Positions 1 through 60,002 of a stretch of 64,000 bases of DNA are shown one piece after another (within the stretch, counting starts at the first letter, position 1; each line of letters begins with the position of its first letter). Source of the DNA: Escherichia coli (lineage in GTDB: Bacteria; Pseudomonadota; Gammaproteobacteria; Enterobacterales; Enterobacteriaceae); NCBI RefSeq assembly GCF_003790525.1, contig NZ_CP033635.1; one strand, 5' to 3'. The notes under the pieces are model-generated. The model searched no databases, was not told where the DNA came from, and saw only the letters and a list, made by a program, of their open reading frames with translations. The position numbers were made by a program, and so were the translations under genes.

Positions 1-422
<422 letters not shown>

Positions 423-429
423 TGTAAAT

Positions 430-495
430 GCCGGATGAAGCGTTTATGCCGCATCCGGTAGTCCTGAATCGTGCGGGGGCAACCCCGCACACATC
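430..495. repeat. REP-like palindromic units downstream of glpK
   Basis: Inverted repeats ccggatg...catccgg and tgcggggg..ccccgca in the glpK-glpX intergenic region. Confidence 0.4.
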
Positions 496-556
496 AATAA
501 TCCCGCCCTTCCCCTGTGCTACACTTCGCGCCATTCCTTACTGCTTAGAGTTTGCT

Positions 557-1567
557 ATGAGACGAGAACTTGCCATCGAATTTTCCCGCGTCACCGAATC
601 TGCGGCGCTGGCTGGCTACAAATGGCTAGGACGCGGCGATAAAAACACCGCGGACGGCGCAGCGGTAAACGCCATGCGTATTATGCTCAACCAGGTCAAC
701 ATTGACGGCACCATCGTTATTGGTGAAGGTGAAATCGACGAAGCACCGATGCTCTACATTGGTGAAAAAGTCGGTACTGGTCGCGGCGACGCGGTAGATA
801 TTGCTGTTGATCCGATTGAAGGCACGCGCATGACGGCGATGGGCCAGGCTAACGCGCTGGCGGTGCTGGCTGTTGGCGATAAAGGCTGCTTCCTCAATGC
901 GCCAGATATGTATATGGAGAAGCTGATCGTCGGACCGGGAGCCAAAGGCACCATTGATCTGAACCTGCCGCTGGCGGATAACCTGCGCAATGTTGCGGCG
1001 GCGCTCGGTAAACCGTTGAGCGAACTGACGGTAACAATTCTGGCTAAACCACGCCACGATGCCGTTATCGCTGAAATGCAGCAACTCGGCGTACGCGTAT
1101 TTGCTATTCCGGACGGCGACGTTGCGGCCTCAATTCTCACCTGTATGCCAGACAGCGAAGTTGACGTGCTGTACGGTATTGGTGGCGCGCCGGAAGGCGT
1201 GGTTTCTGCAGCGGTGATCCGCGCATTAGATGGTGACATGAACGGTCGTCTGCTGGCGCGTCATGACGTCAAAGGCGACAACGAAGAGAATCGTCGCATT
1301 GGCGAGCAGGAGCTGGCACGCTGCAAAGCAATGGGCATCGAAGCCGGTAAAGTATTGCGTCTGGGCGATATGGCGCGCAGCGATAACGTCATCTTCTCTG
1401 CCACCGGTATTACCAAAGGCGATCTGCTGGAAGGCATTAGCCGCAAAGGCAATATCGCGACTACCGAAACGCTGCTGATCCGCGGCAAGTCACGCACTAT
1501 TCGCCGCATTCAGTCCATCCACTATCTGGATCGCAAAGACCCGGAAATGCAGGTGCACATTCTCTGA
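557..1567 (+). CDS. glpX: Fructose-1,6-bisphosphatase class II
   Basis: 336 aa from ATG 557 (MRRELAIEFSRVTESAALAGYKWLGRGDKN...); the ORF-track start at 428 is an upstream extension. Confidence 0.9.
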   Translation: MRRELAIEFSRVTESAALAGYKWLGRGDKNTADGAAVNAMRIMLNQVNIDGTIVIGEGEIDEAPMLYIGEKVGTGRGDAVDIAVDPIEGTRMTAMGQANALAVLAVGDKGCFLNAPDMYMEKLIVGPGAKGTIDLNLPLADNLRNVAAALGKPLSELTVTILAKPRHDAVIAEMQQLGVRVFAIPDGDVAASILTCMPDSEVDVLYGIGGAPEGVVSAAVIRALDGDMNGRLLARHDVKGDNEENRRIGEQELARCKAMGIEAGKVLRLGDMARSDNVIFSATGITKGDLLEGISRKGNIATTETLLIRGKSRTIRRIQSIHYLDRKDPEMQVHIL

Positions 1568-1588
1568 GTGATTTGATCGATTGAGCCT

Positions 1589-1617
1589 TCCAGTCCTTCG
1601 GGACTGGAATTTTTTTG
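1589..1617 (+). terminator. Rho-independent terminator after glpX
   Basis: Hairpin tccagtcc-ttcg-ggactgga followed by a T-run. Confidence 0.7.
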
Positions 1618-1663
1618 TTCGGAGAACGAAGATAAGGCAAGTCAATCAAAACAGGAGAAAAAC

Positions 1664-2410
1664 ATGGCTGATTGGGTAACAGGCAAAGTCACTAAAGTGC
1701 AGAACTGGACCGACGCCCTGTTTAGTCTCACCGTTCACGCCCCCGTGCTTCCGTTTACCGCCGGGCAATTTACCAAGCTTGGCCTTGAAATCGACGGTGA
1801 ACGCGTCCAGCGCGCCTACTCCTATGTTAACTCGCCCGATAATCCCGATCTGGAGTTTTACCTGGTCACCGTCCCCGATGGCAAATTAAGCCCACGATTG
1901 GCGGCACTGAAACCGGGCGATGAAGTGCAGGTGGTTAGCGAAGCAGCTGGCTTCTTTGTTCTGGATGAAGTACCAGATTGCGAAACGCTATGGATGCTGG
2001 CAACCGGTACAGCGATTGGCCCTTATCTATCGATTCTGCAACTGGGTAAAGATTTAGATCGCTTCAAAAATCTGGTCCTGGTTCACGCCGCACGTTATGC
2101 CGCCGACTTAAGCTATTTGCCACTGATGCAAGAACTGGAAAAACGCTACGAAGGCAAACTGCGCATTCAGACGGTGGTCAGTCGGGAAACGGCTGCGGGT
2201 TCGCTCACTGGGCGGATACCGGCGTTAATTGAAAGTGGTGAACTGGAAAGCGCGGTTGGCCTGCCGATGAATAAAGAAACCAGCCATGTGATGCTGTGCG
2301 GCAATCCACAGATGGTGCGCGATACGCAACAGTTGCTGAAAGAGACCCGGCAGATGACGAAACATTTACGTCGCCGACCGGGCCATATGACAGCGGAGCA
2401 TTACTGGTAA
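1664..2410 (+). CDS. fpr: Ferredoxin/flavodoxin-NADP+ reductase
   Basis: 248 aa, MADWVTGKVTKVQNWTDALFSLTVHAPV...; recognised as Fpr. Confidence 0.9.
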   Translation: MADWVTGKVTKVQNWTDALFSLTVHAPVLPFTAGQFTKLGLEIDGERVQRAYSYVNSPDNPDLEFYLVTVPDGKLSPRLAALKPGDEVQVVSEAAGFFVLDEVPDCETLWMLATGTAIGPYLSILQLGKDLDRFKNLVLVHAARYAADLSYLPLMQELEKRYEGKLRIQTVVSRETAAGSLTGRIPALIESGELESAVGLPMNKETSHVMLCGNPQMVRDTQQLLKETRQMTKHLRRRPGHMTAEHYW

Positions 2411-2414
2411 GCGG

Positions 2415-2843
2415 TTACTTATCGATAAACGGCACGATGAGCAAATCCGCACTCAACTTATTGATCATCCCGCGATATGCCGGCATCAAACGGTTGATAA
2501 ATGAGTGGTGATGACCACAGACAAGGAGGTCGCACTGCTCTTTTTGCATAATTTCCAGCAGTGTTTCCGGCATTTCTCCGCGTTCAATACGCAGTTTTGT
2601 CTTCGGCCATTGAATATTTTTCGTCAGTTTATACAGCTTGTTATCCGACTTATTCTTCAACAATTGAAGAATATCTTCTGTTGCAGGGAAGTAGATACCC
2701 GGATACAACTCGCTTAAGCCATCATCAATATGAATTAACGTCAGGTGAGCGTCATTATGTCTGGCGAGCTCCAGGGCTTTATTCACCAGTAAGGCATCTT
2801 CTTCATTCCCGGAAATTGCCACGCCAATGTGTTTATAAGCCAT
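2415..2843 (-). CDS. uspD: Universal stress protein D
   Basis: 142 aa, [42 protein letters not shown]...; Usp fold signature. Confidence 0.85.
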
Positions 2844-2869
2844 GTTTAACTCCTTCTAAAGCAACTCCA

Positions 2870-3169
2870 TCAAGCTAACGAACGCAGTGATAACTCAAAA
2901 ATAATCATCTCGGCCTGGCATGAGAAGGTGAAGGCCGCATCAAGCTCAACTTGCCCTTCCAGATCCTTAATCTTATAGGCTACGCTGGCCCCTTCATCTG
3001 CAGAGGATGCAGCGGCGGCAAGCTCTTTCAGTTTGGTCATAAAGGACTCTGCTTCTTCGCGGGTGGCAAAAAAGCGCGAAAACTTACTGGTACAGTTGTC
3101 GTTATCAATCACCGTACCGATATCAATCGCACATCCTTTAGTACTGCATTTATCTACGACATCTTTCAT
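2870..3169 (-). CDS. yiiS: Conserved small protein YiiS (UPF0381)
   Basis: 99 aa ORF in the conserved position between uspD and yiiR. Confidence 0.8.
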
Positions 3170-5450: not shown

Positions 5451-6206
5451 TTAACGCAAAATCTCACACTGATGATCCTGGATTTCCTCGGCTGAAGCAC
5501 GGTTCAGCGTCAGTAGATTTCGTTGTGTCGCCAGCAATACAAATGAGTTATCACTCTGCCGTACCATTGCCAGCCCGTAGCTTCCCATATGTTCCCGCGC
5601 CTCAGGCACTTCTTCTGCAAGCATCATAAATGGGCTGCGTTGTACCAGTTCGCTTTCCGTTACCCGACGCGCCAGGTACTCATGCCCACGCAAACCACCT
5701 GGCAGTGGCAACCAGCGGCTACTGATGTTCGCCAGATTGTTATCCAGCTGTTCGCGCACATCAGGACGAATACAAGAAATATGAATATGAAAATGGTTTT
5801 GCGTACGCCCGGTGCGAGAGTTGATCGCCAAAGAAACCGCGCGATCGGGAACCGGCTGGCCGTATTTTTTGCTCATAAAATCACGCGCCTGCCAGGCCAA
5901 CCAAAAGAAGTTCGGCGTTGAAGGATCGGTCAACAAAGGACTTTCAGTACCGTTAATACGATACGTTGGCATCAACAGATATTGCAGTGGGCCATTAAGA
6001 TCTTTTAAAACCACGTATCCGGCGTTGGGTTTGACTTCCGCACATGGCGAAGGATTTTGATTTTGCTGCTGATTGGGCAAACATTCCTCAAGGACAATCT
6101 TACGTAATGTATCCGACTCTTCACCGGTTAATTTCCAGTAACCAATACCGGCAGCCACAACGGCGATAACTATCATCACCAAAAAAAGAAGACCCGCTTT
6201 TTTCAT
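5451..6206 (-). CDS. cdh: CDP-diacylglycerol pyrophosphatase
   Basis: 251 aa from [24 protein letters not shown]...; ORF-track start at 6398 is an upstream extension. Confidence 0.85.
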
Positions 6207-6261
6207 CTTTTTTTCCCTGTACCTCAAAGAGATGCAAGGGTAACGCAAAATCGTGACAAAT

Positions 6262-6292
6262 AAAAAACCCGGTCGCGAGAAACCACCGGGTT
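6262..6292 (-). terminator. Rho-independent terminator after sbp
   Basis: Minus-strand hairpin aacccggtggtttctcgcgaccgggtt followed by a T-run. Confidence 0.6.
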
Positions 6293-6312
6293 TGATAATT
6301 ATCCTGGAGAAA

Positions 6313-7302
6313 TCAGCGTTTGCTGATCTGATCGAACGTACCGCCGTTAGCAAAATGCTCTTTTTGCGCTTTCGTCCAGCCGCCGAACTCTTCATCAATG
6401 GTGAATAACTTCAGCTTTGGAAACGCATTTTCGTACTTTTTCGCCACCTCAGCATCGCGCGGACGGTAGTAGTTTTTCGCGGCAATTTCCTGACCTTCTG
6501 GCGAGTAGAGATATTTCAGGTAGGCTTCCGCCACCTCTTTGGTGCCTTTTTTCTCGACCACTTTATCGACCACCGACACGGTTGGCTCTGCGAGGATAGA
6601 CTCACTCGGCGTGACGATTTCGAATTTATCTTTCCCCAGTTCATTCGCTGCCAGCAGAGCTTCGTTTTCCCAGGCGATCAGTACATCGCCAATTCCGCGC
6701 TCGACAAAAGTGTTAGTGGAGCCGCGCGCGCCAGAATCCAGAACTTCGACGTTTTTATACAGTGCCCGAACAAAATCCTGTGCTTTTGCCTGATCGTTGT
6801 TGTTGTGATGCAGCGCGTAGCCCCAGGCAGCCAGGTAGTTCCAGCGCGCGCCACCAGAGCTTTTCGGATTAGGCGTGATCACCGAAACACCCGGTTTAAT
6901 CAGATCGTTCCAGTCATGGATCTGCTTCGGATTGCCCTTACGTACCAGGAAAACAATGGTGGAAGTGTACGGTGCGGAGTTATCCGGCAGACGTTTGATC
7001 CACTCTTTATCAATCCGCCCGCGTTCCGCAATTGCGTCCACGTCATAGGCCAGAGCCAGAGTGACAACATCAGCTTCAATACCATTGATTACCGACGTCG
7101 CTTGTTTGCCTGAACCACCGTGGGACTGACGGATCACCACGTTATCGCCAGTTTGCTGTTTCCAGTGGGCGCTGAATGCCTTGTTGTACTGTTCGTACAA
7201 TTCGCGCGTTGGATCATATGAAACGTTAAGAAGCTGAATATCCTTTGCCATAACGCTGGTTGCCGCCAGCAAAAATGTTAACCCTACGCCCCACTTGTTC
7301 AT
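6313..7302 (-). CDS. sbp: Periplasmic sulfate-binding protein
   Basis: 329 aa with signal peptide ([19 protein letters not shown]). Confidence 0.9.
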
Positions 7303-7439
7303 CGCCCGACTCTCTTATGTTGTGTTGTGATGAGCAAAGCGTGCCAGAAGGTTAACCAAACATTAAAGAATAAAAAAAGATTGGCTATAACTTGCGGGTA
7401 TATGTTGAGGGATTAAAAAGGCGGAAGAAATCCGCCTCA

Positions 7440-7570
7440 TATTGCTGACAAAGTGCGCTTTGTCCATGCCGGATGCGGCGCGAACGCCTTATCCGGCCTA
7501 CAAAAGTTTGCAAATTCAATAAATTGCAGAATTCATGTAGGCCTGATAAGCGAAGCGCATCAGGCATTTT
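7440..7570. repeat. REP/BIME elements between sbp and pfkA
   Basis: Copies of the REP consensus gccggatgcggcgcgaacgccttatccggcctac and the inverted copy gtaggcctgataagcgaagcgcatcaggc. Confidence 0.75.
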
Positions 7571-7621
7571 TGCTTCTGTCATCGGTTTCAGGCTAAAGGA
7601 ATCTGCCTTTTTCCGAAATCA

Positions 7622-8584
7622 TTAATACAGTTTTTTCGCGCAGTCCAGCCAGTCGCCTTTGAACGGACGCTTCATGTTTTCGATAGCGTCGATGATGTCG
7701 TGGTGAACCAGCTGTTCGTTCTGGATACCTACGCAACGACCGCCGTAGCCTGCCAGCAGCAGATCGATAGCGTAAGCGCCCATACGGGAAGCCAGAATAC
7801 GGTCGTAAGGCACCGGAGAACCACCGCGCTGGATGTGGCCCAGCACAGTTGCGCGGGTTTCACGACCGGTTTCTTTCTCGATGAAATGCGCCAGTTCGTC
7901 AACATCACACATATGTTCGGTAATCGCCACGATCGCGTGTTTTTTACCTTTCGCGATACCCGCTTTGATTTCGTTTACCAGGTCTTCACGGCTGAATTCA
8001 ACTTCCGGAACTACAACGAATTCACAGCCACCAGCAATAGCCGCAGCCAACGTCAGATCGCCACAATAACGACCCATCACTTCCACCACGGAAATACGCT
8101 GGTGAGAAGAAGAGGTGTCACGCAGACGGTCGATCGCTTCTACAACGGTGCTCAGCGCAGTGAAGAAACCGATAGTGTAGTCAGTGCCTTTGATGTCGTT
8201 GTCGATAGTGCCCGGCAGGCCGATGCACGGGAAGCCCATTTCGGTCAGACGCATTGCACCCATGTAGGAACCGTCACCGCCGATAACCACCAGCGCATCG
8301 ATCCCACGTTTTTTCAGGTTTTCGATAGCCACGGCGCGGATGTTCTCGTCGCGGAATTCCGGGAAACGCGCAGAACCGAGGAACGTACCGCCACGGTTGA
8401 TCATGTCAGAAACGCTGTAACGGTCTAGCTGTACCATACGGTCTTCATACAGACCCAGATAGCCGTCATAAATGCCCATTACTTCCAGACCTTCTGTCAG
8501 CGCAGAACGAACAACCCCGCGAATTGCGGCGTTCATGCCTGGCGCATCACCGCCGCTTGTCAACACACCGATTTTCTTAATCAT
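7622..8584 (-). CDS. pfkA: 6-phosphofructokinase I
   Basis: 320 aa from [26 protein letters not shown]...; ORF-track start at 8680 is an extension. Confidence 0.95.
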
Positions 8585-8764
8585 GACTACCTCTGAACTT
8601 TGGAATGCAAAATGAAATCTGTTGCCGGAAGTCTTCTTGCACATCGAAGTGATCCAACGAATGTGCAAATAGTATAACAATCACTTCCTGCTGAATTGAT
8701 TCAGGTCAGGCCAAATGGCGGTATTTTATACACAAAATGCGGGTCTGGCTCTCTTTTATACTGA

Positions 8765-9745: not shown

Positions 9746-9792
9746 GATAAAAAAAACCCCCACATCATGTGGGGGAAGACAGGGATGGTGTC
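9746..9792. repeat. attL core (prophage-left copy of the cpxP-terminator repeat)
   Basis: gataaaaaaaacccccacatcatgtgggggaagacagggatggtgtc, identical over 47 bp to 44747..44793. Confidence 0.85.
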
Positions 9793-9840
9793 ACAAAAAA
9801 TCACCTAACCTACTGATATAAATGGATTTATATAAACCAC

Positions 9841-9860
9841 TGTCCACATAGCGTCCACAT
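9841..9860. promoter_or_regulatory. Putative integrase arm-type binding sites (tandem TGTCCACA repeats), left arm
   Basis: tgtccacatagcgtccacat; the same tandem motif recurs at 44646..44664 beside int. TGTCCACA is the reverse complement of the P2 Int arm consensus as recalled. Confidence 0.5.
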
Positions 9861-9891
9861 CGACCATAAATAAAGCCCCTCAACTGAGGGG

Positions 9892-11317
9892 TAATGCCGA
9901 TCAGTTAAGGATCAGTTGACCGATCCAGTGGCTGTGTAAGAATCCGGAAACGCTCACTTGTTTCCGGATTTTTTTATGCACATTGGACAGGCTCTTGATC
10001 TGGTATCCCGTTACGATTCTCTGCGTAACCCACTGACTTCTCTGGGGGATTACCTCGACCCCGAACTCATCTCTCGTTGCCTTGCCGAATCAGGTACTGT
10101 AACGCTACGCAAGCGCCGTCTTCCCCTCGAAATGATGGTCTGGTGTATTGTTGGCATGGCGCTTGAGCGTAAAGAACCTCTTCACCAGATTGTGAATCGC
10201 CTGGACATCATGCTGCCGGGCAATCGCCCCTTCGTTGCCCCCAGTGCCGTTATTCAGGCCCGCCAGCGCCTGGGAAGTGAGGCTGTCCGCCGCGTGTTCA
10301 CGAAAACAGCGCAGCTCTGGCATAACGCCACGCCGCATCCGCACTGGTGCGGCCTGACCCTGCTGGCCATCGATGGTGTGTTCTGGCGCACACCGGATAC
10401 ACCAGAGAACGATGCAGCCTTCCCCCGCCAGACACATGCCGGGAACCCGGCGCTCTACCCGCAGGTCAAAATGGTCTGCCAGATGGAACTGACCAGCCAT
10501 CTGCTGACGGCTGCAGCCTTCGGCACGATGAAGAACAGCGAAAATGAGCTTGCTGAGCAACTTATAGAACAAACCGGCGATAACACTCTGACGTTAATGG
10601 ATAAAGGTTATTACTCACTGGGACTGTTAAATGCCTGGAGCCTGGCGGGAGAACACCGCCACTGGATGATACCTCTCAGAAAGGGAGCGCAATATGAAGA
10701 GATCAGAAAACTGGGTAAAGGCGATCATCTGGTGAAGCTGAAAACCAGCCCGCAGGCACGAAAAAAGTGGCCGGGACTGGGAAATGAAGTGACAGCCCGC
10801 CTGCTGACCGTGACGCGCAAAGGAAAAGTCTGCCATCTGCTGACGTCGATGACGGACGCCATGCGCTTCCCCGGAGGAGAAATGGCGGATCTGTACAGTC
10901 ATCGCTGGGAAATCGAACTGGGATACAGGGAGATAAAACAGACGATGCAACTGAGCAGGCTGACGCTGAGAAGTAAAAAACCGGAGCTTGTGGAGCAAGA
11001 GCTGTGGGGTGTCTTACTGGCTTATAATCTGGTGAGATATCAGATGATTAAAATGGCGGAATATCTGAAAGGTTACTGGCCGAATCAACTGAGTTTCTCA
11101 GAATCATGTGGAATGGTGATGAGAATGCTGATGACATTGCAGGGCGCTTCACCGGGACGTATACCGGAGCTGATGCGCGATCTTGCAAGTATGGGACAAC
11201 TTGTGAAATTACCGACAAGAAGGGAAAGGGCCTTCCCGAGAGTGGTAAAGGAGAGGCCCTGGAAATACCCCACAGCCCCGAAAAAGAGCCAGTCAGTTGC
11301 TTAACTGACTGGCATTA
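9892..11317 (+). mobile_element. IS4 insertion sequence (1426 bp)
   Basis: Terminal inverted repeats taatgccgatcagttaagg / ccttaactgactggcatta (imperfect); flanked by a 13-bp direct duplication ctcaactgagggg at 9879..9891 and 11318..11330; single transposase ORF. Confidence 0.9.
9976..11304 (+). CDS. insG: IS4 transposase (DDE family)
   Basis: 442 aa from ATG 9976 ([40 protein letters not shown]...); ORF-track start at 9958 is a TTG extension. Confidence 0.9.
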
Positions 11318-11342
11318 CTCAACTGAGGGGCTATTTTTGTGA

Positions 11343-11561
11343 TCACATCCACATAATTTGCTGCCCTGACGGCAACGGGTGCGGCCTCACGGCGTGGACT
11401 TCTCCCGGCTTCACGATGTATCTCTGTACCGACTCATAAGTGATGAACGTGGCGCTGCAATTCACGTTCTGGCACTGGTGATAACGCTCTTTTGTCGTGT
11501 CAGTGATATAGCGGCTTGTACGCGCATGTGCGGCATGCTGGCATAAAGGACAATGAAACAT
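11343..11561 (-). CDS. ogr: Late-gene transcription activator Ogr (zinc finger)
   Basis: 72 aa, MFHCPLCQHAAHARTSRYITDTTKERYHQCQNVNCSATF...; four-Cys zinc finger; P2 Ogr length. Confidence 0.9.
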   Translation of the reverse strand: MFHCPLCQHAAHARTSRYITDTTKERYHQCQNVNCSATFITYESVQRYIVKPGEVHAVRPHPLPSGQQIMWM

Positions 11562-11642
11562 CGCGAGCACCTCTTCCGGTTTTGTTGATAGTGCCATTTT
11601 AGTTAAATTATCATTATAAAACAAAAAGATAAACAAAAGACA

Positions 11643-12806
11643 TCACTCATAATCTTCTGTTTCGTACTCCACATCAGAAAGCCTGACCTCAAGCTCTAAG
11701 GACGTCGTGAAGCCGCTATTATTCAGAAAATGTGTCACCTTAGTGACTGTCCAGTCCTGCTCGTCTATGACGCGCTTAAAGCCTGACACTCTGACCGGTG
11801 TTTCCGTGTAAATATCTGCACGACCGGTAGCCAGGATGATGGAGAACTCCGCAACGCCCCGTTGCAGTTTATCCCACTTCGCCTGAGCAGCACGCATGGC
11901 CTGTGCTTTCGTGGCATATACCGTGGTCAGGGCAAAAACGTTGTCAGCCTCACCGGCCATGTATTCACCTTCGCGCGCTTCCGGTACTTTTGGCGCTTTC
12001 TTCTGCGTGACTGGTTTCGCTTTCGGGTGCTCCAGTGCGCGCAGGTGTTTTTCTTTCTTTTTGCGTTTCAGTTTTACCTTCTGCTTTTGCGGCTTCGGGT
12101 CTTTGGTGTGAAGCCACTTTGCCGTTACGCCGGTATAGGCTCCACGGTCAGCAATCGCAAAATGATGACGGTCGCCGTCGCTGCGGGTGATGGTAATCTG
12201 CGGGATTTTTTTACCGCTGGCCGTCACCCCCTGCCCCGCTTTGAGAAACAACAGTTTTCCCATTTTTACCGACACCTCACCGCCGTTGCGTTCAGCAAGG
12301 CGGGTCAGGAATTTTGCATCAGACTCCTGCGACTGGTCGATGTGCGGGATTTTAATTCCGGCCAGTGACGGAGCGACACTGGCTTCCAGCCTGTTACGGG
12401 AGGCTATCGCCTCAACAATCGCACCGAGCGTGGTGTCATGCCAGGAGCCTTCACGGCGGGAATTGAGCGTGCCACGAAAATCTGCACTCCGGGCCCGGAT
12501 GGCGACCACATCCGGCGTGCCCCGGTGTTCTACCTCATCAACGGTGAATTTCCCTTTGCATACCAGGGCAAAACCTTTCCAGCCGATATACACCGTCAGA
12601 ACAGCGCCACGAACCGGCAGTTCGACCTGCCCGTCGGCATCGTTCAGTTCAATATCAAGCTGATCAGCCTCAAAGCCCCGGTTATCCGTCAGGGTCATGC
12701 TCATCAGACGGTCGCTGATATTGCCGGTAATATCCCTGCTGTCGAGCATCAGCATGTAATCCGGCGTCAGCGTACTGCCTGCATCAAATGTCAGCGCATC
12801 CAGCAT
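11643..12806 (-). CDS. D: Tail protein D
   Basis: 387 aa, same length and position as P2 gpD. Confidence 0.85.
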   Translation of the reverse strand: MLDALTFDAGSTLTPDYMLMLDSRDITGNISDRLMSMTLTDNRGFEADQLDIELNDADGQVELPVRGAVLTVYIGWKGFALVCKGKFTVDEVEHRGTPDVVAIRARSADFRGTLNSRREGSWHDTTLGAIVEAIASRNRLEASVAPSLAGIKIPHIDQSQESDAKFLTRLAERNGGEVSVKMGKLLFLKAGQGVTASGKKIPQITITRSDGDRHHFAIADRGAYTGVTAKWLHTKDPKPQKQKVKLKRKKKEKHLRALEHPKAKPVTQKKAPKVPEAREGEYMAGEADNVFALTTVYATKAQAMRAAQAKWDKLQRGVAEFSIILATGRADIYTETPVRVSGFKRVIDEQDWTVTKVTHFLNNSGFTTSLELEVRLSDVEYETEDYE

Positions 12807-13285
12807 TATTCCGCCCCCGTCATCCCCGTGAATCTGGTCGCCAGACTACCGGCCTTACCGATGAGCGACTCCGCCTGTTTACCGATATCGCCATAAAGCG
12901 CGGCCAGTGATTCATCAACGCGGGTGAGCGACAGCGTAAAATCAATTTTTCGGGGTGTGCCGTCTGCAAAGAAAATACTCCCTGTTTCACTCACCTTGCT
13001 GATGACATACATGCCGTAAATCATGCCTGTGCCATCCAGCAACGGCCACGCCCGGCCTTCCTCTGCCATCAGCCTGAGCGTGGTCATCGTCAGCTTGCCG
13101 CCGGTCAGTTCGGGATAAAGCACGCCGGCAAGCGTAATGTTTTCCTCACCCACACCGAGAAACTGAAAGGCATCCCGTTTACCGATACGGGAATTTGACG
13201 GCCAGCGATAATCTGATTCGCGCTGCATGGTCTGGTGTGGCAGCGTCTGGCGCATAAAAACAAACATACCTAACGCGAGCATCAT
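12806..13285 (-). CDS. U: Tail protein U
   Basis: 159 aa, P2 gpU length and position. Confidence 0.85.
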   Translation of the reverse strand: MMLALGMFVFMRQTLPHQTMQRESDYRWPSNSRIGKRDAFQFLGVGEENITLAGVLYPELTGGKLTMTTLRLMAEEGRAWPLLDGTGMIYGMYVISKVSETGSIFFADGTPRKIDFTLSLTRVDESLAALYGDIGKQAESLIGKAGSLATRFTGMTGAE

Positions 13286-13299
13286 TTTTAGTCACCTCC

Positions 13300-15747
13300 T
13301 TAACCGTCATGCATCATGCTGGCACGGGCGCGCACACGTTTATCCCGCTCGTATTTTTCGAGCGCATCCTGTAACTGGCGGTCGAGCTGTGTCCCCGGCG
13401 CAGTACCACCCGTCAGGCTGATGTGATATTCGTTTTTACTCTGGTCCACATAAGAGCGGCCAGCCGGTGCCGTGACCGGCTGATAAGCCTGATAGCCTGC
13501 ATAAGAGCTGGTCGCCGGAATATAACCACCGCTGCCATACGTGGCGGCTTGAGTTCTGGCGGCGGTCTGGTCAAGTGTGTCTGACTCTTTGTTGATAACA
13601 CCGAGTTTTTCCAGTACCCAGTCAATACCGCTGCGCAGTTTGTTGAACGCATTAAGCGGCAGCATCAGCGCGTCAGCCAGTGCCTGCCCGAACATGACCC
13701 CCGTGTCACGGCAACTGTTCAGGGAGTCCTGAGTGGCTTTGACCGGGGCAATCAGGTTTTTAAACCACTGCCACGCGGCCTGTAACTTTTCACCCAGCCA
13801 GTCAAACACCGGCTTAAGTGGCGTGAACAGTTCCCCCACCGGCGCAAATGCCACTTTCAGCCCTTCAACCACACCGCCAAAGAATGCGCTGACAGGCTCC
13901 CAGTATTTACGGATAAGCAACGCCCCGGCGACAATTGCGGCCACCACGGCCACAACCGGCCAGCTAATAACCCCGATGGCGGTCATAACAGCACTGCCAA
14001 CCGTCGTGAAGACTGCCCCCATTGCGCCTGCTGCCGCGATGATGGCATTGATGCCGGTGATAACCGGCCAGGCTACGAGGCCAATGGCACCGATGATGCC
14101 AGTCAGCGCCAGCGCGCCACCGGCAATGATGCCGATGGTTGACGCCAGTGATTTGTTTTTCTGGATCCAGCCGTCGAGTTTTAACACATACTTTGTGGTC
14201 GTCTGCGTGAGCTTACGCAGCGCGCCTTCCTGCTGGTCAAACAGGTCAGTCCCCACTGCCTCATAAGCGGACTGAAACTCTTTAAAGTCACCGCCTAGGT
14301 TGTCCTGCATGATATTTACCAGCTCGGCGGTCTTCCCGTCTGAGGATTTAAACGCAGCGGTCAGTTTGTCCAGCTTTCCGGTTGAGGCGGCAGTCATCAG
14401 CACGGCGGCGGCTGAGCTGGCCTCCTCCCCGAAAATAGTTTTCATGTATTCAGCCTGCTGGGCAGTACCGAGCCGGTTTTTCTCAAAACTGGCCTGCATT
14501 TCTTTCAGAATGGTAAATATTGGCCGGGTGTTTCCCTTGCTGTCTGAGGTTTTCACTCCAAGCTCTTTGAGTGCATCCCATGCTTTTCCCGTCGGTGCCT
14601 GCAGGCGGCTTAACACGGCACGGCTTCCCGTCCCCGCCATTGAGCCTGTGATTTTTGCATCATGCAGCGCCCCGACCATTGCGGCGGTTTCTTCAATGCT
14701 GACACCGGCATTTTTTGCCACAGGTGCGGCATAGGTCAGCGCATCGCTCATGCCGTCAAAATCGGCGGCGGTTTTGTTCATCGTCATGGAGAGAACATCC
14801 CCGATATGAGCGACCTTATCGTTTGAAAGCTGAAAGGCGGATTTCATCCCCATCAACAGGGCGGCGTTTTCTTCCATCGTGCGGCGGTTCGCCAGCGCCA
14901 TATTCAGCGTGACCGGCGTTGCCGCCTGAATGGCATCAACATCCCCACCCGCTTTCGCGATGATTATCTGTGCACCGGCCGCATCATCCGCCGAGGCGGC
15001 GGTATTGTCGCCGAGCTGGCGCGCCTGTTTGCGTAGTGCGGTCATTTCGGCGGAGTCTTTTGCCACTCCGAGCACGGCCAGCAATTCTGAGTTTTTCTGC
15101 GCAAACTCATAACCTGGCATCAGCAACTTAACTCCGGCCATCGTTCCCGCCGCCGCAATCCCCACACCGGCAGCGCCCACTGAGGCCATATTTCCGGCCA
15201 GTTCCTTGCCTGCCTGATAACGCTGTTTTACTGCGTTAAGTTTTGCCTGTTGCGCACTGACACGCGCCAGCGCGTCACGCTGACGGTTAAGCTGTGCGGT
15301 GGTTTCACTGATACGGTTTTTCAGTCCCTGCTCATCATGTGCAAGATTGCGGGTATTAATTCCCACAACGGCCAGTTCCCGCTGCTGGCGTTTAACGGAA
15401 TCCGTCAGGCGGTTATATTTCGCCTGTAAGTCCTCCGCCGCACGCTTCGCGGATTCCAGCACTTTCGCCTGAGCACGTGTCGGACGTTCGGTGTTTTTAA
15501 ACTGTGTGGCAAGGGCTTCGGCCTCCTGCCGTGCCTTTTCAAGTGCATGACCAGTCACGGCGAGCTGTGCACTGGTCTTGCGAAATCCCTCAATACGGGA
15601 TGCCTGACCGTTCAGCTCACGCAGTGATTTTTGTGTTTCCCGGATATCCCCCGACAGCGATTTGCTCGCTGTGCGGATGGATTTAAACGGGCGGGATGCC
15701 TGGTCAACAGCCCTGAGCAATACCTGTAATTTTACATTGTTACTCAT
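13300..15747 (-). CDS. T: Tail tape-measure protein T
   Basis: 815 aa, coiled-coil N-terminus and Gly/Ala-rich hydrophobic repeats; P2 gpT length. Confidence 0.9.
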   Translation of the reverse strand: MSNNVKLQVLLRAVDQASRPFKSIRTASKSLSGDIRETQKSLRELNGQASRIEGFRKTSAQLAVTGHALEKARQEAEALATQFKNTERPTRAQAKVLESAKRAAEDLQAKYNRLTDSVKRQQRELAVVGINTRNLAHDEQGLKNRISETTAQLNRQRDALARVSAQQAKLNAVKQRYQAGKELAGNMASVGAAGVGIAAAGTMAGVKLLMPGYEFAQKNSELLAVLGVAKDSAEMTALRKQARQLGDNTAASADDAAGAQIIIAKAGGDVDAIQAATPVTLNMALANRRTMEENAALLMGMKSAFQLSNDKVAHIGDVLSMTMNKTAADFDGMSDALTYAAPVAKNAGVSIEETAAMVGALHDAKITGSMAGTGSRAVLSRLQAPTGKAWDALKELGVKTSDSKGNTRPIFTILKEMQASFEKNRLGTAQQAEYMKTIFGEEASSAAAVLMTAASTGKLDKLTAAFKSSDGKTAELVNIMQDNLGGDFKEFQSAYEAVGTDLFDQQEGALRKLTQTTTKYVLKLDGWIQKNKSLASTIGIIAGGALALTGIIGAIGLVAWPVITGINAIIAAAGAMGAVFTTVGSAVMTAIGVISWPVVAVVAAIVAGALLIRKYWEPVSAFFGGVVEGLKVAFAPVGELFTPLKPVFDWLGEKLQAAWQWFKNLIAPVKATQDSLNSCRDTGVMFGQALADALMLPLNAFNKLRSGIDWVLEKLGVINKESDTLDQTAARTQAATYGSGGYIPATSSYAGYQAYQPVTAPAGRSYVDQSKNEYHISLTGGTAPGTQLDRQLQDALEKYERDKRVRARASMMHDG

Positions 15748-56413: not shown

Positions 56414-56462
56414 ACACTGCCGGATGCGGCGCGAGCGCCTTATCCGGCCTACGGGTCGTGCA
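56414..56462. repeat. REP element between rhaA and rhaD
   Basis: tgccggatgcggcgcgagcgccttatccggcctac. Confidence 0.7.
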
Positions 56463-56495
56463 TCCGACAACACCGAATTTACAGGAACACAGAAC

Positions 56496-57320
56496 ATGCA
56501 AAACATTACCCAGTCCTGGTTTGTCCAGGGAATGATCAAAGCCACCACCGACGCCTGGCTGAAAGGCTGGGACGAGCGCAATGGTGGTAACCTGACGCTG
56601 CGCCTGGATGACGCCGATATCGCACCGTATCACGACAACTTTCATGCACAACCGCGCTATATCCCGCTCAGCCAGCCCATGCCTTTACTGGCAAATACAC
56701 CGTTTATTGTCACCGGCTCCGGCAAATTCTTCCGTAACGTCCAGCTTGATCCTGCGGCTAACTTAGGCGTCGTAAAAGTCGACAGCGACGGCGCGGGCTA
56801 CCATATTCTCTGGGGGTTAACCAACGAAGCCGTCCCGACATCCGAACTTCCGGCGCACTTCCTCTCTCATTGCGAACGCATTAAAGCCACCAACGGTAAA
56901 GATCGGGTGATCATGCACTGCCATGCCACCAACCTGATCGCCCTTACCTACGTATTGGAAAACGACACCGCGGTCTTCACTCGCCAGCTTTGGGAAGGCA
57001 GCACCGAGTGTCTGGTAGTGTTCCCGGATGGCGTCGGCATTTTGCCGTGGATGGTGCCCGGCACCGACGAAATCGGCCAGGCGACCGCACAGGAAATGCA
57101 AAAACATTCGCTGGTGTTGTGGCCCTTCCACGGCGTCTTCGGCAGCGGTCCGACACTGGATGAAACATTCGGTTTAATCGACACCGCAGAAAAATCAGCA
57201 CAAGTATTAGTGAAGGTTTATTCGATGGGCGGCATGAAACAGACCATCAGTCGTGAAGAGCTGATAGCACTCGGCCAGCGTTTCGGCGTTACACCACTTG
57301 CCAGTGCGCTGGCGCTGTAA
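56496..57320 (+). CDS. rhaD: Rhamnulose-1-phosphate aldolase
   Basis: 274 aa from ATG 56496 ([33 protein letters not shown]...). Confidence 0.95.
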
Positions 57321-57329
57321 GGAGCAAAT

Positions 57330-57644
57330 ATGATCCGCAAAGCCTTTGTCATGCAGGTTAACCCCGACGCCCACGAAGAGTATCAGCGTCGGCATAATCC
57401 AATCTGGCCGGAACTGGAAGCAGTGTTGAAATCTCACGGTGCGCATAACTACGCCATTTACCTCGACAAAGCGCGTAATCTGCTGTTTGCCACGGTAGAG
57501 ATTGAATCTGAAGAACGGTGGAATGCGGTAGCCAGTACTGATGTTTGCCAACGTTGGTGGAAGTATATGACCGACGTTATGCCAGCTAACCCGGATAACA
57601 GCCCAGTCAGTAGCGAGCTGCAAGAAGTGTTTTACCTGCCTTAA
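57330..57644 (+). CDS. rhaM: L-rhamnose mutarotase
   Basis: 104 aa, [34 protein letters not shown]... Confidence 0.9.
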
Positions 57645-57684
57645 TGAGTTGCGGTGCCGGAAAATATCCAGCACCGCGCCTTCA

Positions 57685-59079
57685 TCAGAAGAAGTATTTA
57701 AAGCGAACGCGTGCGCCGTAACGGTCATCAGTATCATCACCGTGTTTTTTATCACCGTCGCTATCCAGAATGGAGTAATACGTCCCGAGGTAAATATTAA
57801 AGTTCTCCATATCCATCACATTAGCGAACTGATAAGACGCATGAATGGTGTGAATGGTGTACGTCCCTTCATCATCAATCCAGCAGTCGTTATCACAAAC
57901 TACACCGCTGAATTCATCAATCTTATTGTGCGCGTAGATATAACCCAGCTCGAAACGTTTCCACAGCGCGTTAATCCCGGCAGTGAAATCTTTCTCATTA
58001 TTAGCATCTAAATAGGCGGTATTAAGATTAACCACGACGCCATTTTCCGGATCCGTTTTCAGGCCATTCCAGGTCATGCTCATACCATAGCCGGTACGAT
58101 CGGACTGATCGACAAAATTACCCTTGCTATCGGTATAACCATAAGCATTATTTACTACGTTCGCTTCCATCGCTGCGGAAACGGTGAATTCTTCCGTCGG
58201 CGACCAGGCAATTACCGGACGCAGATAAGCAACATTTTTCTGCTGCTCCATATCGCGTCCATGATAATTACCGTCATTATATAAAGATGTTCCGTCTTCA
58301 AGTAACGTGTTTAACTCAAAATACCAGTTATCAAGTTGTTTGCTGACGAGGAAATTACCGCCAGCGTTAGAGCGCCCGCGGCCCTCTTTCATCATATAGA
58401 TATAACCGCTGCCATCGTCATAAAGATCGTTCGCAGTATTACCGGAATGTTCAACAAAGGTATCCTGATTCAGCGGGAACATATCGTAGGCTTCAAAACG
58501 GCCGACTTTGACCTTCCAGTCATTCTCTTTCCCAAAGAAGAATACCGCATCATCGATATTTACTGAACCGTGCATGTCCCCCAGCGGTTGTGCGGAGAAC
58601 CCGGCGAAATAGCCATTATCCAGTTTTCGCATACCATCAAAACCTAACAAAATACGACCATTGAGATTCCACTGTTCATTAGTGGGATCGCTATTCACAT
58701 CAGCGTTGGTCATTGCCAGCAGGCCATGATTACTTTCTGCATCCATATTAAATTCTACGTCGCCGTAGATTTTTAAATCGCCATAACCTGAGAGCAAAAG
58801 ATTAGGTGAGGTGGAGTTTTTCTTTGCAGATTCCGCCGTTGCCTGTCCATTTACCGGCGTATTGCCCTGGGCAGCCTTAATTTCGCGGATCTCAGCGGCT
58901 TGTTGTGTCTGCAGCTGTTTAACCTGGCTCTCTGCTTTTGCTGCCCGCATTTCTGCCGCTTCCAGGCGTTCTTCCAGCAATGCCATGCGTTGTTCCAGCG
59001 TTAAATGCTGTGTTTTTGCCATTCCGGTACTACATGCCAATAATAAACCGATGGCTAAAGATAATGTCGATTTTTTCAT
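57685..59079 (-). CDS. Predicted outer-membrane beta-barrel porin with N-terminal coiled coil (absent from K-12 at this position)
   Basis: 464 aa; signal peptide MKKSTLSLAIGLLLACSTGMA; coiled-coil stretch (EQRMALLEERLEAAEMRAAKAESQVKQLQTQQAAEIREIK); aromatic/Gly-rich body ending ...RFKYFF with C-terminal Phe. Confidence 0.7.
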   Translation of the reverse strand: MKKSTLSLAIGLLLACSTGMAKTQHLTLEQRMALLEERLEAAEMRAAKAESQVKQLQTQQAAEIREIKAAQGNTPVNGQATAESAKKNSTSPNLLLSGYGDLKIYGDVEFNMDAESNHGLLAMTNADVNSDPTNEQWNLNGRILLGFDGMRKLDNGYFAGFSAQPLGDMHGSVNIDDAVFFFGKENDWKVKVGRFEAYDMFPLNQDTFVEHSGNTANDLYDDGSGYIYMMKEGRGRSNAGGNFLVSKQLDNWYFELNTLLEDGTSLYNDGNYHGRDMEQQKNVAYLRPVIAWSPTEEFTVSAAMEANVVNNAYGYTDSKGNFVDQSDRTGYGMSMTWNGLKTDPENGVVVNLNTAYLDANNEKDFTAGINALWKRFELGYIYAHNKIDEFSGVVCDNDCWIDDEGTYTIHTIHASYQFANVMDMENFNIYLGTYYSILDSDGDKKHGDDTDDRYGARVRFKYFF

Positions 59080-59555
59080 TATTTACGTTCCCTGAAATAA
59101 AAGAGACCCTACGCTTTCCAAAAGGAATACGTATATAGAGAAATATAAGGTGTGCACTTTCGAATTTTTAATCCAACTTCAGCAGGCCGATGGATAGTAT
59201 CCCGCTGCATAATATGAGTAAATCCGCTGATTTCCTGGAACGTGAGGAATATAACAATAGTGCCTTTTTTAACCAAATATCGTAAAAAATATTAGATATA
59301 ATTCACGCTGACTCATAAGCCACAAATATAAATAACCTTGCTGCAAAACATGTGCGACAGTTAAACATTCACAACATCATTAAATAATGATTTTTTATTC
59401 ACTGAATTTATTTTTCCCATCAATATGTGCCTTACACCACAAAATTTATCCTTCACTCTGCCTTATATTGTCACGACTTCACGACATATCCGCGCTCATC
59501 ACAAAACCGCCCCGCCGTTACAATTAACTATAATATTTTTTCATGGAGTCCAATA

Positions 59556-60002
59556 ATGGCAGCACTTACTGCAAGCTGTATTGACCTGAATATTCAGGGC
59601 AATGGCGCTTATTCCGTTCTGAAGCAGTTGGCGACAATGGCGTTACAAAACGGTTTTATCACCGACTCACACCAGTTCCTGCAAACCCTGCTGCTGCGCG
59701 AAAAAATGCACTCCACGGGATTTGGTTCCGGCATCGCCGTGCCGCACGGTAAAAGCGCCTGCGTTAAACAACCGTTCGTGTTATTCGCCCGCAAAACGCA
59801 GGCCATTGACTGGCAGGCCAGCGATGGCGAAGACGTCAATTGCTGGATCTGCCTCGGCGTGCCACAAAGTGGCGAAGAGGAACAGGTCAAAATCATCGGC
59901 ACGCTGTGCCGCAAAATTATCCACCAGGATTTTATCAACCAACTGCGACAGGGCGACGCCGACCAGGTACTTGCTTTGTTAAATCAAACCCTCAGCTCAT
60001 AA
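59556..60002 (+). CDS. frvA: PTS fructose-like EIIA component
   Basis: 148 aa from ATG 59556 (MAALTASCIDLNIQGNGAYSVLKQLATMALQNGFITD...); ORF-track start at 59427 is an extension. Confidence 0.85.
   Translation: MAALTASCIDLNIQGNGAYSVLKQLATMALQNGFITDSHQFLQTLLLREKMHSTGFGSGIAVPHGKSACVKQPFVLFARKTQAIDWQASDGEDVNCWICLGVPQSGEEEQVKIIGTLCRKIIHQDFINQLRQGDADQVLALLNQTLSS

Follow-up and report, generated by a model that had tools for sequence, protein, structure and literature searches.

An orphan chromosomal RafY-family porin gene between rhaM and frvA of Escherichia coli

Introduction

The outer-membrane porin RafY is encoded on the raffinose plasmids (pRSD2 type) by the last gene of the rafRABD-Y operon. 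The work of Andersen et al. (1998), as it is cited in PMC4827864, presents plasmid RafY as a large general diffusion channel, and Ulmke (1997) and Andersen (1998), as cited in PMC4809568 and PMC4827864, are the sources for a faster entry of raffinose, maltose, sucrose, and lactose through it. TCDB gives 16 strands for the RafY family (PMC4827864). GlyP of Klebsiella pneumoniae, which is a chromosomal member of the family, aids nutrient competition upon loss of OmpK35/36 and provides an alternative nutrient channel once de-repressed (bioRxiv 10.64898/2026.03.29.715108). Its gene is under the control of a LacI-type repressor, GlyR, and is the last one in a regulator-permease-hydrolase-porin operon. 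The sucrose porin ScrY and the maltoporin LamB are likewise outer-membrane sugar channels, but they are 18-stranded.

Here we describe a porin gene located between rhaM and frvA of E. coli. The analysis covered the family and domain layout of the protein, its predicted fold class, and the distribution, gene order, purifying selection, and conserved upstream motif of the gene. It is probable that the gene encodes a chromosomal, stand-alone ('orphan') outer-membrane glycoporin of the RafY family, i.e., a wide, catabolite-controlled sugar channel that is ancestral at its site and was lost in K-12-type strains. A literature search found no functional experiment on the chromosomal porin, the sole mention being that of 'rafY2' in O157:H7.

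Results and discussion

Gene identity and sequence features

The window, i.e., the whole stretch of DNA that was analyzed, comprises 64,000 nucleotides, and the features discussed below are collected in Table 1. The RefSeq CDS ECSMS35_RS21625 (WP_000749944.1) of E. coli SMS-3-5, with which the window is 100% identical, has the same coordinates as the open reading frame found here and is named 'carbohydrate porin'. The gene rhaM (57330–57644, + strand) is convergent with the porin gene, with 40 bp separating the two stop codons, and frvA (59556–60002, + strand) is divergent from it across a spacer of 476 bp, where the G+C content falls to 33%. The open reading frame list and this spacer agree with the original prediction of a 464-residue product, encoded convergently with rhaM and next to an AT-rich region.

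Signal peptidase I is predicted to cleave the precursor after G-M-A (Ala21). In an alignment of 67 homologues Ala21 was almost invariant, and Cys16 is replaced by Val/Ala-Asn in the Citrobacter and Kluyvera orthologues. Since Cys16 is not kept and Ala21 nearly always is, a lipobox is unlikely. The protein ends in ...RFKYFF, with a terminal Phe. A search of NCBIfam returned no family assignment.

Table 1. Positions of the porin gene, its predicted parts, and neighboring elements in the window
Feature	Coordinates	Strand	Basis or description
RafY-family porin CDS	57685–59079	−	464 aa + stop; ORF list, RefSeq annotation, Pfam
Predicted signal peptide, residues 1–21 (MKKSTLSLAIGLLLACSTGMA, followed by KT)	59017–59079	−	read from sequence
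Putative periplasmic N-terminal coiled-coil extension, about residues 26–71	58867–59004	−	AlphaFold helix, Sugarporin_N, invariant residues
Beta-barrel domain, residues 104–464	57688–58770	−	match to Porin_8/RafY of Pfam; 16 strands in the model; last residues ...RFKYFF
Long loop between strands 5 and 6, residues 193–240	58360–58503	−	alignment and model
Conserved cis element TGTTATATTCCTCACG	59241–59256	−	CRP-like geometry (TGTGA-N6-TCACA)
Predicted promoter	59194–59222	−	−35 TTTACT (59222–59217), 17-nt spacer, −10 TACTAT (59199–59194)
Palindromic sequence ACGTATTCCTTTTGGAAAGCGT of the putative 5' leader	59111–59132	−	conserved in E. coli and Citrobacter
G+C-rich hairpin between the stop codons of rhaM and the porin gene	57651–57677		11-bp stem with one mismatch, 5-nt loop
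Segment without K-12-type counterpart	57646–59420		blastn of the window against the K-12-type locus

Family membership and fold

Residues 104–464 matched the Pfam family Porin_8, 'glycoporin RafY' (PF16966, TCDB 1.B.15), over the entire model (1–372 of 372) with E=3.7e-154, and the same family was matched by all 67 aligned homologues. The neighbors of the protein in AlphaFold DB carry carbohydrate, raffinose, or glyco-porin annotations. The identity to the plasmid RafY proteins, which are encoded downstream of rafR-rafA-rafB-rafD on IncF plasmids, was 77.6–79% over 464 residues. Plasmid RafY is likewise 464 residues long and has the same order of signal peptide, coiled coil, linker, and barrel; the two proteins also have the C-terminal ...FKYFF and a Cys pair (VCDNDCW) in common, whereas their signal peptides have diverged. 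RafY family, fold class, and annotation of the gene are already known, and in that respect it is a real but ordinary gene. No raf genes or fragments were found at the E. coli porin locus, so linkage to raffinose genes is absent there; the rafRABD linkage is the context of the prototype and does not define the RafY protein family.

A PDB sequence search gave chance matches only (E about 1). Since the RafY family has no solved structure, the fold comparison was done with the AlphaFold model, in which residues 101–463 form a beta-barrel with 16 main strands and pLDDT values of 75–92 in the barrel blocks. The mean pLDDT is 67.6, with values below 50 at residues 209–235 and in the linker, and because of this moderate quality the strand count and the pore geometry are provisional. 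The fold is predicted, on the basis of the model, to be nearer to trimeric general porins (OprP, DcaP, Omp-Pst1) than to LamB or ScrY. Sequence identity to the 16-stranded trimeric porins OprP, DcaP, Omp-Pst1, PorB, and OmpU is only 7–13%, neither Porin_1 nor Porin_O_P of Pfam matched the protein, and the substrates of these porins (phosphate, dicarboxylates, ions) differ from the sugars proposed here.

The model also contains a low-confidence helix at residues 28–70 (pLDDT about 55) with regular a/d heptads, the a/d positions being L28, M32, L35, L39, A42, A46, A49, V53, and L56. E29, R31, E36, R38, L39, E43, and E50 of this stretch are invariant among the 67 homologues. The Pfam family Sugarporin_N, which represents the homologous periplasmic coiled-coil extension of ScrY, matched residues 27–54 weakly in this porin (E=0.06) and 31 of the 67 RafY-family homologues at E<=0.001 (best 6.9e-07). 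As judged from sequence, the N-terminal coiled coil is related to the ScrY-type extension.

Conservation in the protein is highest between G193 and G241, where about 30 invariant columns of the alignment gather. This stretch corresponds to the loop flanked by model strands 188–194 and 241–249, and by analogy with other 16-stranded porins it is a candidate L3-type constriction loop.

The original prediction of a secreted protein with a ScrY-like N-terminal coiled coil and a C-terminal barrel ending in Phe is borne out by the signal peptide, the helix and its Sugarporin_N matches, and the C-terminus, and the predicted porin-like barrel speaks against a non-porin protein. The proposed OprB/LamB/ScrY type held as far as a carbohydrate porin is concerned; the barrel itself belongs to RafY (PF16966) and not to any of these three.

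This evidence also bears on the possibility that the protein is a substrate-specific LamB/ScrY-like channel with a saturable site, for which raffinose-family or rhamnose-containing oligosaccharides would be candidate substrates. The ScrY-type extension, the RefSeq name, and the preservation of the porin-rhaM pair in six genera are consistent with such a channel, and the extremely conserved loop 193–240 could make a binding site. We nevertheless regard it as unlikely, given that the Pfam profiles of LamB (PF02264) and OprB (PF04966) did not match the protein even at E<=10, that the model has 16 strands rather than the 18 of the LamB/ScrY family and resembles general porins, and that the gene is convergent with rhaM and not co-transcribed with it. 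Monomeric rhamnose does not require a special porin, in view of the exclusion limits of OmpF and OmpC.

Upstream region and flanking hairpins

The motif TGTTAynTnnCTCACG was present as a single copy 176–241 nt upstream of the start codon in all rhaM/frvA-site orthologues examined, which came from six genera and two unclassified Enterobacteriaceae isolates. It is embedded in otherwise unalignable DNA, and 18 of the 26 matches to the pattern in 1.13 Mb of sequence fall at this position upstream of a porin gene. A TTTAC hexamer is fixed 18 nt past the motif in most aligned orthologues, two of which have TTTCAT and TCCACT instead; the next element, 16–17 nt beyond the −35 hexamer, is a TAnTAn box. 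The predicted promoter places the CRP-like site at about −61.5, and the 16-bp motif, having the correct half-site spacing and TGTTA as its left half-site, is a candidate class I CRP site of the lac P1 type. The most conserved G of CRP sites lies in the TGTGA half-site. In all orthologues the left half of the motif is TGTTA and not TGTGA, and since T replaces this G, another regulator may bind the site. A consensus promoter scan chose a different site, 59171–59142. The predicted transcription start lies near 59187, with an alternative near 59135.

The possibility that the motif is a RafR operator was rejected, as RafR sites are CGAAACGTTTCG palindromes unrelated to it. Such operators, which are found in the raffinose operon, are absent upstream of the chromosomal gene, and conversely the rafD-rafY spacer of the plasmids does not contain the CRP-like motif. 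A G+C content of 33% is typical of H-NS-silenced DNA, and the gene may therefore be poorly expressed in the laboratory.

A Shine-Dalgarno sequence, AGGGAA (59093–59088), lies downstream of the leader palindrome. Nine of 12 orthologues have a hairpin in about this part of the leader, though with differing stems; RNAalifold found no consensus structure in the 5' leader, and single-sequence z-scores ranged from −2.6 to +1.1, so that a conserved leader hairpin is unsupported. At the other end of the gene, the K-12 spacer begins with GTGCCAGAGATGCCTCCGGCAC, which is similar to the hairpin between the two stop codons, and this likeness identifies the latter as the counterpart of the putative K-12 rhaM terminator hairpin. 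The terminator scan missed it because it has no T run. A search of Rfam with positions 57300–59700 returned nothing.

Proposed function

The most likely role of the porin is that of a diffusion channel for di- and oligosaccharides under catabolite control. The rafRAB genes near the orthologues of K. oxytoca, Enterobacter sp. ENT03, and Superficieibacter (see below) speak for a link to sugars. What is outlined here about trimers, the pore and its substrates, and control by CRP is inferred. Sec would export the precursor, the signal peptide would be removed after Ala21, and BAM, for which a terminal Phe is the usual signal, would insert the C-terminal ~360 residues as a 16-stranded barrel. Three barrels would probably assemble, their N-terminal heptad helices would wind into a coiled coil in the periplasm like those of ScrY and DcaP, and the loop between strands 5 and 6 would fold into the lumen and fix the pore size. 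Such a pore may pass sugars that OmpF and OmpC admit poorly, from disaccharides to small oligosaccharides (raffinose, melibiose, maltodextrins, lactose), which carriers encoded elsewhere would import from the periplasm across the inner membrane. A weak promoter, probably activated by cAMP-CRP bound ~61.5 bp upstream, would have the channel made when preferred sugars are scarce.

A more far-reaching version, which we put forward only tentatively, is that the orphan porin is no leftover but a CRP-activated alternative wide channel, which Escherichia, Citrobacter, Kluyvera, and relatives have retained next to the rhamnose genes for much longer than genus-level time and whose chromosomal lineage was the source of plasmid RafY. 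If the CRP-activated channel exists, then by analogy with GlyP, to which we liken the porin by family, its presence could alter the competitiveness for oligosaccharides in the gut in half of E. coli and could change the cost of OmpF/OmpC loss in antibiotic-resistant strains. Unlike glyP, the E. coli gene has no regulator, permease, or hydrolase genes of this kind next to it; neither a partner permease nor a partner hydrolase is adjacent at its locus.

If the pore is as wide and general as that of plasmid RafY, strains in the gut could grow differently on oligosaccharides from plants, and the channel could partly offset the loss of classical porins, as reported for the Klebsiella family member. 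K-12 misses an outer-membrane channel that is carried by about half of E. coli, including BL21, O157:H7, and ST131, and this is relevant to studies of uptake, permeability, phages, or antibiotics that extrapolate from K-12, although the practical value is modest.

Distribution and evolutionary history

A survey of complete E. coli genomes found the gene in 2557 of 5426 (47%) and showed it to be absent from 53%. In K-12 MG1655, rhaM (b3901) and frvA (b3900) are adjacent across a 300-bp spacer, as expected if the gene is accessory and missing from K-12, which the original prediction had claimed. When the window was compared with the K-12-type locus by blastn, homology stopped at 57645 and restarted at 59421, with 1775 bp in the window versus 164 bp in the K-12-type locus. 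Under two scoring schemes, the search for remnants of the porin gene or its upstream region in the 164-bp filler gave results no better than shuffled sequences. The direction of the change was inferred from synteny in other genera, because the junction cannot tell deletion from replacement.

Among the matches listed, orthologues with 70–85% identity are convergent with rhaM in Citrobacter, Kluyvera, Trabulsiella, Pseudocitrobacter, and Superficieibacter, and in Trabulsiella the order frvA-porin-rhaM is identical. The matches listed, which were obtained by a scan of genome contigs, include none from Escherichia outgroups such as E. albertii or E. fergusonii. Across genera the porin gene stays paired with rhaM, and the other flank varies; of the two neighboring sugar loci to which the original prediction had pointed, the conserved one is rhaM and not frv.

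The dN/dS of the porin gene was 0.044 within E. coli and 0.052 in comparison with C. rodentium, and two E. coli strains differed by 13 synonymous and no nonsynonymous changes. When the three genes were compared in one strain pair, dS was 0.24 in the porin gene, 0.27 in rhaD, and 0.20 in rhaA. The cross-genus synteny, the dN/dS of about 0.04, and the dS matching that of the rha genes show that the porin gene is ancestral at the rhaM-frvA site and under purifying constraint, and that K-12-type E. coli lost it rather than an insertion having occurred into a K-12-like ancestor.

It has also to be considered whether the gene is a cryptic relic, i.e., the last gene of an ancestral raf-type cluster that is silent in E. 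coli and heading for loss. In K. oxytoca and Enterobacter sp. ENT03 the orthologue has rafRAB as its immediate neighbors, and in Superficieibacter these genes are ~4 kb off, the partner genes are not retained in E. coli, over half of the strains have lost the porin gene itself, and its upstream region is AT-rich, with no expression data found in the literature search. Against this, the substitution pattern within E. coli is that of a constrained gene, none of the five alleles that were translated had a broken reading frame, and all chromosomal matches listed are annotated as carbohydrate porin, with no pseudogene flag in the loci examined. Moreover, the promoter-region motif is kept across genera also where raf genes do not neighbor the porin, and the 476-bp upstream spacer contains no fragments of raf genes. 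A decaying relic appears quite improbable.

Plasmid copies

Paralogues of the porin were found on 196 plasmids. One IncI-gamma/K1 plasmid carries the identical porin allele together with rhaM-rhaD, and MFS and GH32 genes lie immediately upstream of the porin gene there. These two genes were considered as its missing partners and rejected, as they belong to a fos-type island that is located elsewhere in the chromosomes examined (e.g., BEN2908). Because of this origin and because the junction (window position 59237) is plasmid-specific, the arrangement is a mosaic and not a natural operon; the porin of this plasmid is chromosomal DNA captured by the plasmid, the transfer having been from chromosome to plasmid.

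A recent horizontal insertion between rhaM and frvA, perhaps from raf plasmids, would fit the presence/absence polymorphism, the G+C content of the porin segment (43–48% versus 51–58% in the flanks), and the plasmid-borne copies, but it is highly improbable. The same site is occupied in the five genera named above, and at synonymous sites the gene has diverged as much as the rha genes next to it. A search for direct or inverted repeats of a mobile element in the flanks was negative, and integrase and IS genes are absent as well. The identity of plasmid RafY is no more than 78%, with a longer branch, and the IncI-gamma/K1 copy is itself captured chromosomal DNA.

The nearest relative of plasmid RafY is the chromosomal porin of E. 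coli, with 77.6% identity versus <=70% to all others; dS between these two is 0.94, and it is saturated in the comparison of plasmid RafY with Citrobacter.

Locus and annotation

The window matches the chromosome of E. coli SMS-3-5 (NC_010498.1) at 100% identity, and there RefSeq annotates the identical CDS as "carbohydrate porin" (WP_000749944.1). The original prediction had described a 464-aa gene between rhaM and frvA, convergent with rhaM, next to an AT-rich region and absent from K-12, and the open reading frame list, the annotation and the base composition agreed with it. The stop codons of the porin gene and rhaM are 40 bp apart. The spacer 5' of the porin gene is 476 bp long, with a G+C content falling to 33%; that of the porin CDS is 43–48% versus 51–58% in the flanking genes. 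In K-12 MG1655, rhaM (b3901) adjoins frvA (b3900) across a gap of 300 bp.

Coordinates of the porin gene, its neighbours and the predicted control elements in the window
Feature	Position	Strand	Source
rhaM	57330-57644	+	RefSeq annotation of SMS-3-5
G+C-rich hairpin between the stops of rhaM and the porin gene	57651-57677		sequence
Porin ORF (464 aa)	57685-59079	-	ORF list of the window
Predicted -10, TACTAT	59199-59194	-	sequence
Predicted -35, TTTACT	59222-59217	-	sequence
Conserved element TGTTAynTnnCTCACG	59256-59241	-	alignment of orthologue upstream regions
frvA	59556-60002	+	RefSeq annotation of SMS-3-5

When the window was compared with the K-12-type locus, in which rhaM and frvA are adjacent, similarity ended at 57645 and restarted at 59421, with 1775 bp in the window versus 164 unrelated bp in the K-12 type between these breakpoints. 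The 135 bp before frvA (59421–59555) were only ~87% identical between SMS-3-5 and the K-12 type, as against 97% for rhaM, and the frvA control region beside the indel is unusually diverged. The rhaA–rhaD spacer (56414–56495) measured 82 bp in SMS-3-5 and JNE25-001 and ~450–460 bp in K-12 MG1655 and AREA_486; there is therefore a second indel polymorphism in the rha operon. The extra length in K-12 could consist of the repetitive extragenic elements present there.

Family and architecture of the porin

A Pfam search assigned residues 104–464 to Porin_8, "porin-like glycoporin RafY", with the whole model covered (E=3.7e-154). Neither an NCBIfam model matching the protein nor a detectably similar chain among the PDB sequences was found. 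Sugarporin_N matched residues 27–54 weakly (E=0.06) and the same region in 31 of the 67 homologues at E<=0.001 (best 6.9e-07), a sign that the N-terminal extension and the periplasmic coiled coil of ScrY-type porins are related. Residues 1–21 look like a signal for signal peptidase I, and Ala21 is nearly invariant among the homologues. A lipobox at Cys16 is unlikely, as this residue is not kept in Citrobacter or Kluyvera.

The AlphaFold model, built on the 67 homologues, had a mean pLDDT of 67.6 (75–92 in the barrel blocks). It showed a helix at residues 28–70 whose hydrophobic residues recur with 3-4-3-4 spacing, then a disordered linker, and 16 main strands within residues 101–463, of which strands 5 and 6 are joined by a loop of 46 residues. 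Nowhere in the family are invariant residues clustered more densely than in this loop (residues 193–240), which, though modelled at low confidence, is the prime candidate for a constriction loop of the L3 type. Homology search and structure prediction, the checks put forward with the original prediction, gave a predicted porin fold of the RafY family; the ScrY-like N-terminal coiled coil and the carbohydrate porin stood, whereas assignment of the barrel to the ScrY/LamB/OprB type did not.

Proposed function

According to two papers (PMC4809568, PMC12987596), growth on maltose, sucrose and raffinose is faster with the RafY prototype, the plasmid raffinose porin. RafY was reported to form a pore for general diffusion without specificity for sugars (Andersen et al. 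1998, as cited in PMC4827864), and in Klebsiella the family member GlyP is of nutritional benefit when classical porins are lost (bioRxiv 10.64898/2026.03.29.715108). From the pore behaviour of RafY and the advantage given by GlyP, we infer that the chromosomal porin would be a wide channel, under catabolite control, through which di- and oligosaccharides diffuse. After export and cleavage, the protein would be inserted by BAM as a 16-stranded barrel. By analogy with its structural neighbours and with ScrY and DcaP, three such barrels would probably associate, their three periplasmic helices forming a coiled coil. The channel would serve inner-membrane carriers encoded elsewhere. A specific channel of the LamB/ScrY kind is disfavoured, since the Pfam search of the protein gave no LamB match, the model has 16 strands, and RafY is reported to behave differently.

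Conserved upstream element

The upstream regions of the orthologues were mostly unalignable. The sole exception was TGTTAynTnnCTCACG, which occurred once per orthologue at the rhaM/frvA site in all those examined, 176–241 nt before the start codon; when 1.13 Mb of sequence was searched with a loose pattern, 18 of the 26 matches lay at this upstream position. The K. oxytoca copy, which has rafB in front of it, and plasmid rafY both lacked the element in their upstream DNA. The element shares its half-site spacing with the CRP site (TGTGA-N6-TCACA), but its left half-site is TGTTA in all species. A fixed 18 nt downstream of it lies a TTTACa hexamer (TTTCAT or TCCACT in two orthologues), followed after 16–17 nt by a TAnTAn box. 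The CRP-like element would be centred near -61.5 of this predicted promoter, which is the geometry of lac P1, and the arrangement would be compatible with control by CRP. A consensus promoter scan preferred a different, weak promoter (59171–59142). The AT-rich spacer suggests silencing by H-NS.

The reverse complement of the motif, CGTGAGCGAGATAACA in Kluyvera, Pseudocitrobacter, ENT03 and RIT691, contains GTGAGC and GATAAC, the two half-sites of lac operator O1, at a distance of 2 bp, as against 1 bp in O1. A LacI-family regulator could therefore bind the element, instead of or besides CRP. The element was unrelated to the RafR operators on comparison. A palindrome in the putative leader (59132–59111) is kept in E. 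coli and Citrobacter; structure tests did not support it as a conserved RNA structure, and an Rfam search of the porin region gave no match.

Distribution and history

The porin gene (>=80% of length, ~93–100% identity) was present in 2557 of 5426 complete E. coli genomes, and ~300 others had only a raf-type paralogue (~86% identity). The order rhaM-porin-frvABXR was found in SMS-3-5, BL21, O157:H7, O145:H28 and ST131, and rhaM-frvABXR in K-12 and one listed O111:H8 strain. JNE25-001 and AREA_486 showed rhaM-porin-truncated yiiG; in this haplotype (locus positions 11781–12824) all of frvABXR has been lost, together with the 5' portion of yiiG, which is annotated as a pseudogene, and similarity to the window stops at ~59411. 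Since the porin gene is kept where the frv operon is deleted, it is independent of frv. In the record of O111:H8 05-3004, 'fucO: lactaldehyde reductase' adjoins rhaM in place of rhaD.

Among the matches listed, orthologues of 70–85% identity occupied the same site, convergent with rhaM, in Citrobacter (including C. rodentium), Kluyvera, Trabulsiella (with an identical frvB-frvA-porin-rhaM order), Pseudocitrobacter and Superficieibacter. The upstream flank differed: in some it was frvA, in others azlCD with an HTH-cupin regulator, and in yet others a cluster of 6-phospho-glucosidase and PTS genes; rafR-rafA-rafB directly adjoin the porin gene in K. oxytoca and Enterobacter sp. ENT03. In K. oxytoca NBRC 105695 (locus 9755–13729), rafRAB-porin and rhaM are separated by a further regulator of the LacI type, a sugar transporter of the GPH family and a 454-aa protein, which together resemble an additional sugar module at this hotspot. 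Citrobacter and Kluyvera carry an iron-containing alcohol dehydrogenase gene (lactaldehyde reductase-like) between rhaD and rhaM, directly upstream of rhaM, and Kluyvera also has a rhamnose ABC transporter upstream of rhaM.

Between SMS-3-5 and AREA_486, dS was 0.24 for the porin gene, 0.27 for rhaD, 0.20 for rhaA and 0.17 for rhaM. The dN/dS of the porin gene was 0.044 within E. coli and 0.052 against C. rodentium, and no repeats, integrase or IS were found at the flanks of the porin segment. Together, the cross-genus position, the rha-like dS, the low dN/dS and the lack of mobile flanks indicate that the gene is ancestral at the rhaM site, vertically inherited under strong purifying selection, and lost by K-12-type strains. 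The junction is uninformative because the K-12-type filler has no detectable similarity to the SMS-3-5 segment. The predicted accessory status was upheld by the survey, and a gain in the window strain gave way to loss in the K-12 type. With a dN/dS of 0.04 and a promoter motif that has been conserved, the gene is unlikely to be the silent remnant of a chromosomal raf cluster. Synteny across genera, and a dS equal to that of the neighbouring genes, contradict a recent horizontal insertion.

Relation to plasmid RafY

Members of the family were detected by tblastn on 196 plasmids, at ~79% identity; most of these were conjugative plasmids of E. coli. In IncF plasmid pYDC107_184, genes for a regulator of the LacI type, an alpha-galactosidase, a permease of the MFS and a hydrolase of family GH32 precede the porin homologue, which is the classical rafR-rafA-rafB-rafD-rafY order. 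Plasmid RafY was 77.6% identical to the E. coli chromosomal porin and <=70% to every other chromosomal orthologue compared; it was sister to the former, on a long branch, in a neighbour-joining tree, and the two genes differed by a dS of 0.94 (dN/dS 0.14). By these measures the chromosomal gene is a close paralogue of rafY, and the simple tree suggests that the plasmid lineage possibly derives from the chromosomal porin. A second match on the SMS-3-5 chromosome, outside the window, is probably a raf-type paralogue.

The original interpretation was essentially right, and the gene is already known, being annotated in RefSeq and belonging to a curated Pfam/TCDB family. The O157:H7 copy has been named "rafY2", and O157 lacks rafRABD (PMC4809568); a literature search for functional work on the chromosomal gene or rafY2 found none. 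Minor leads are the linkage to rhaM across genera, the conserved CRP-like promoter element, the possibility that plasmid rafY arose from the chromosome, and the capture of the chromosomal porin segment by a plasmid. In this plasmid, CP057400.1 (IncI-gamma/K1, conjugative, from pig faeces), positions 5843–8589 correspond to window 59237–56491, a 2.7-kb copy of porin, rhaM and rhaD with 98.4% identity and an identical porin protein. The segment is fused to the MFS and GH32 genes of a fos-type fructo-oligosaccharide island that sits elsewhere in chromosomes such as BEN2908, so that the mosaic joins two sugar-uptake modules.
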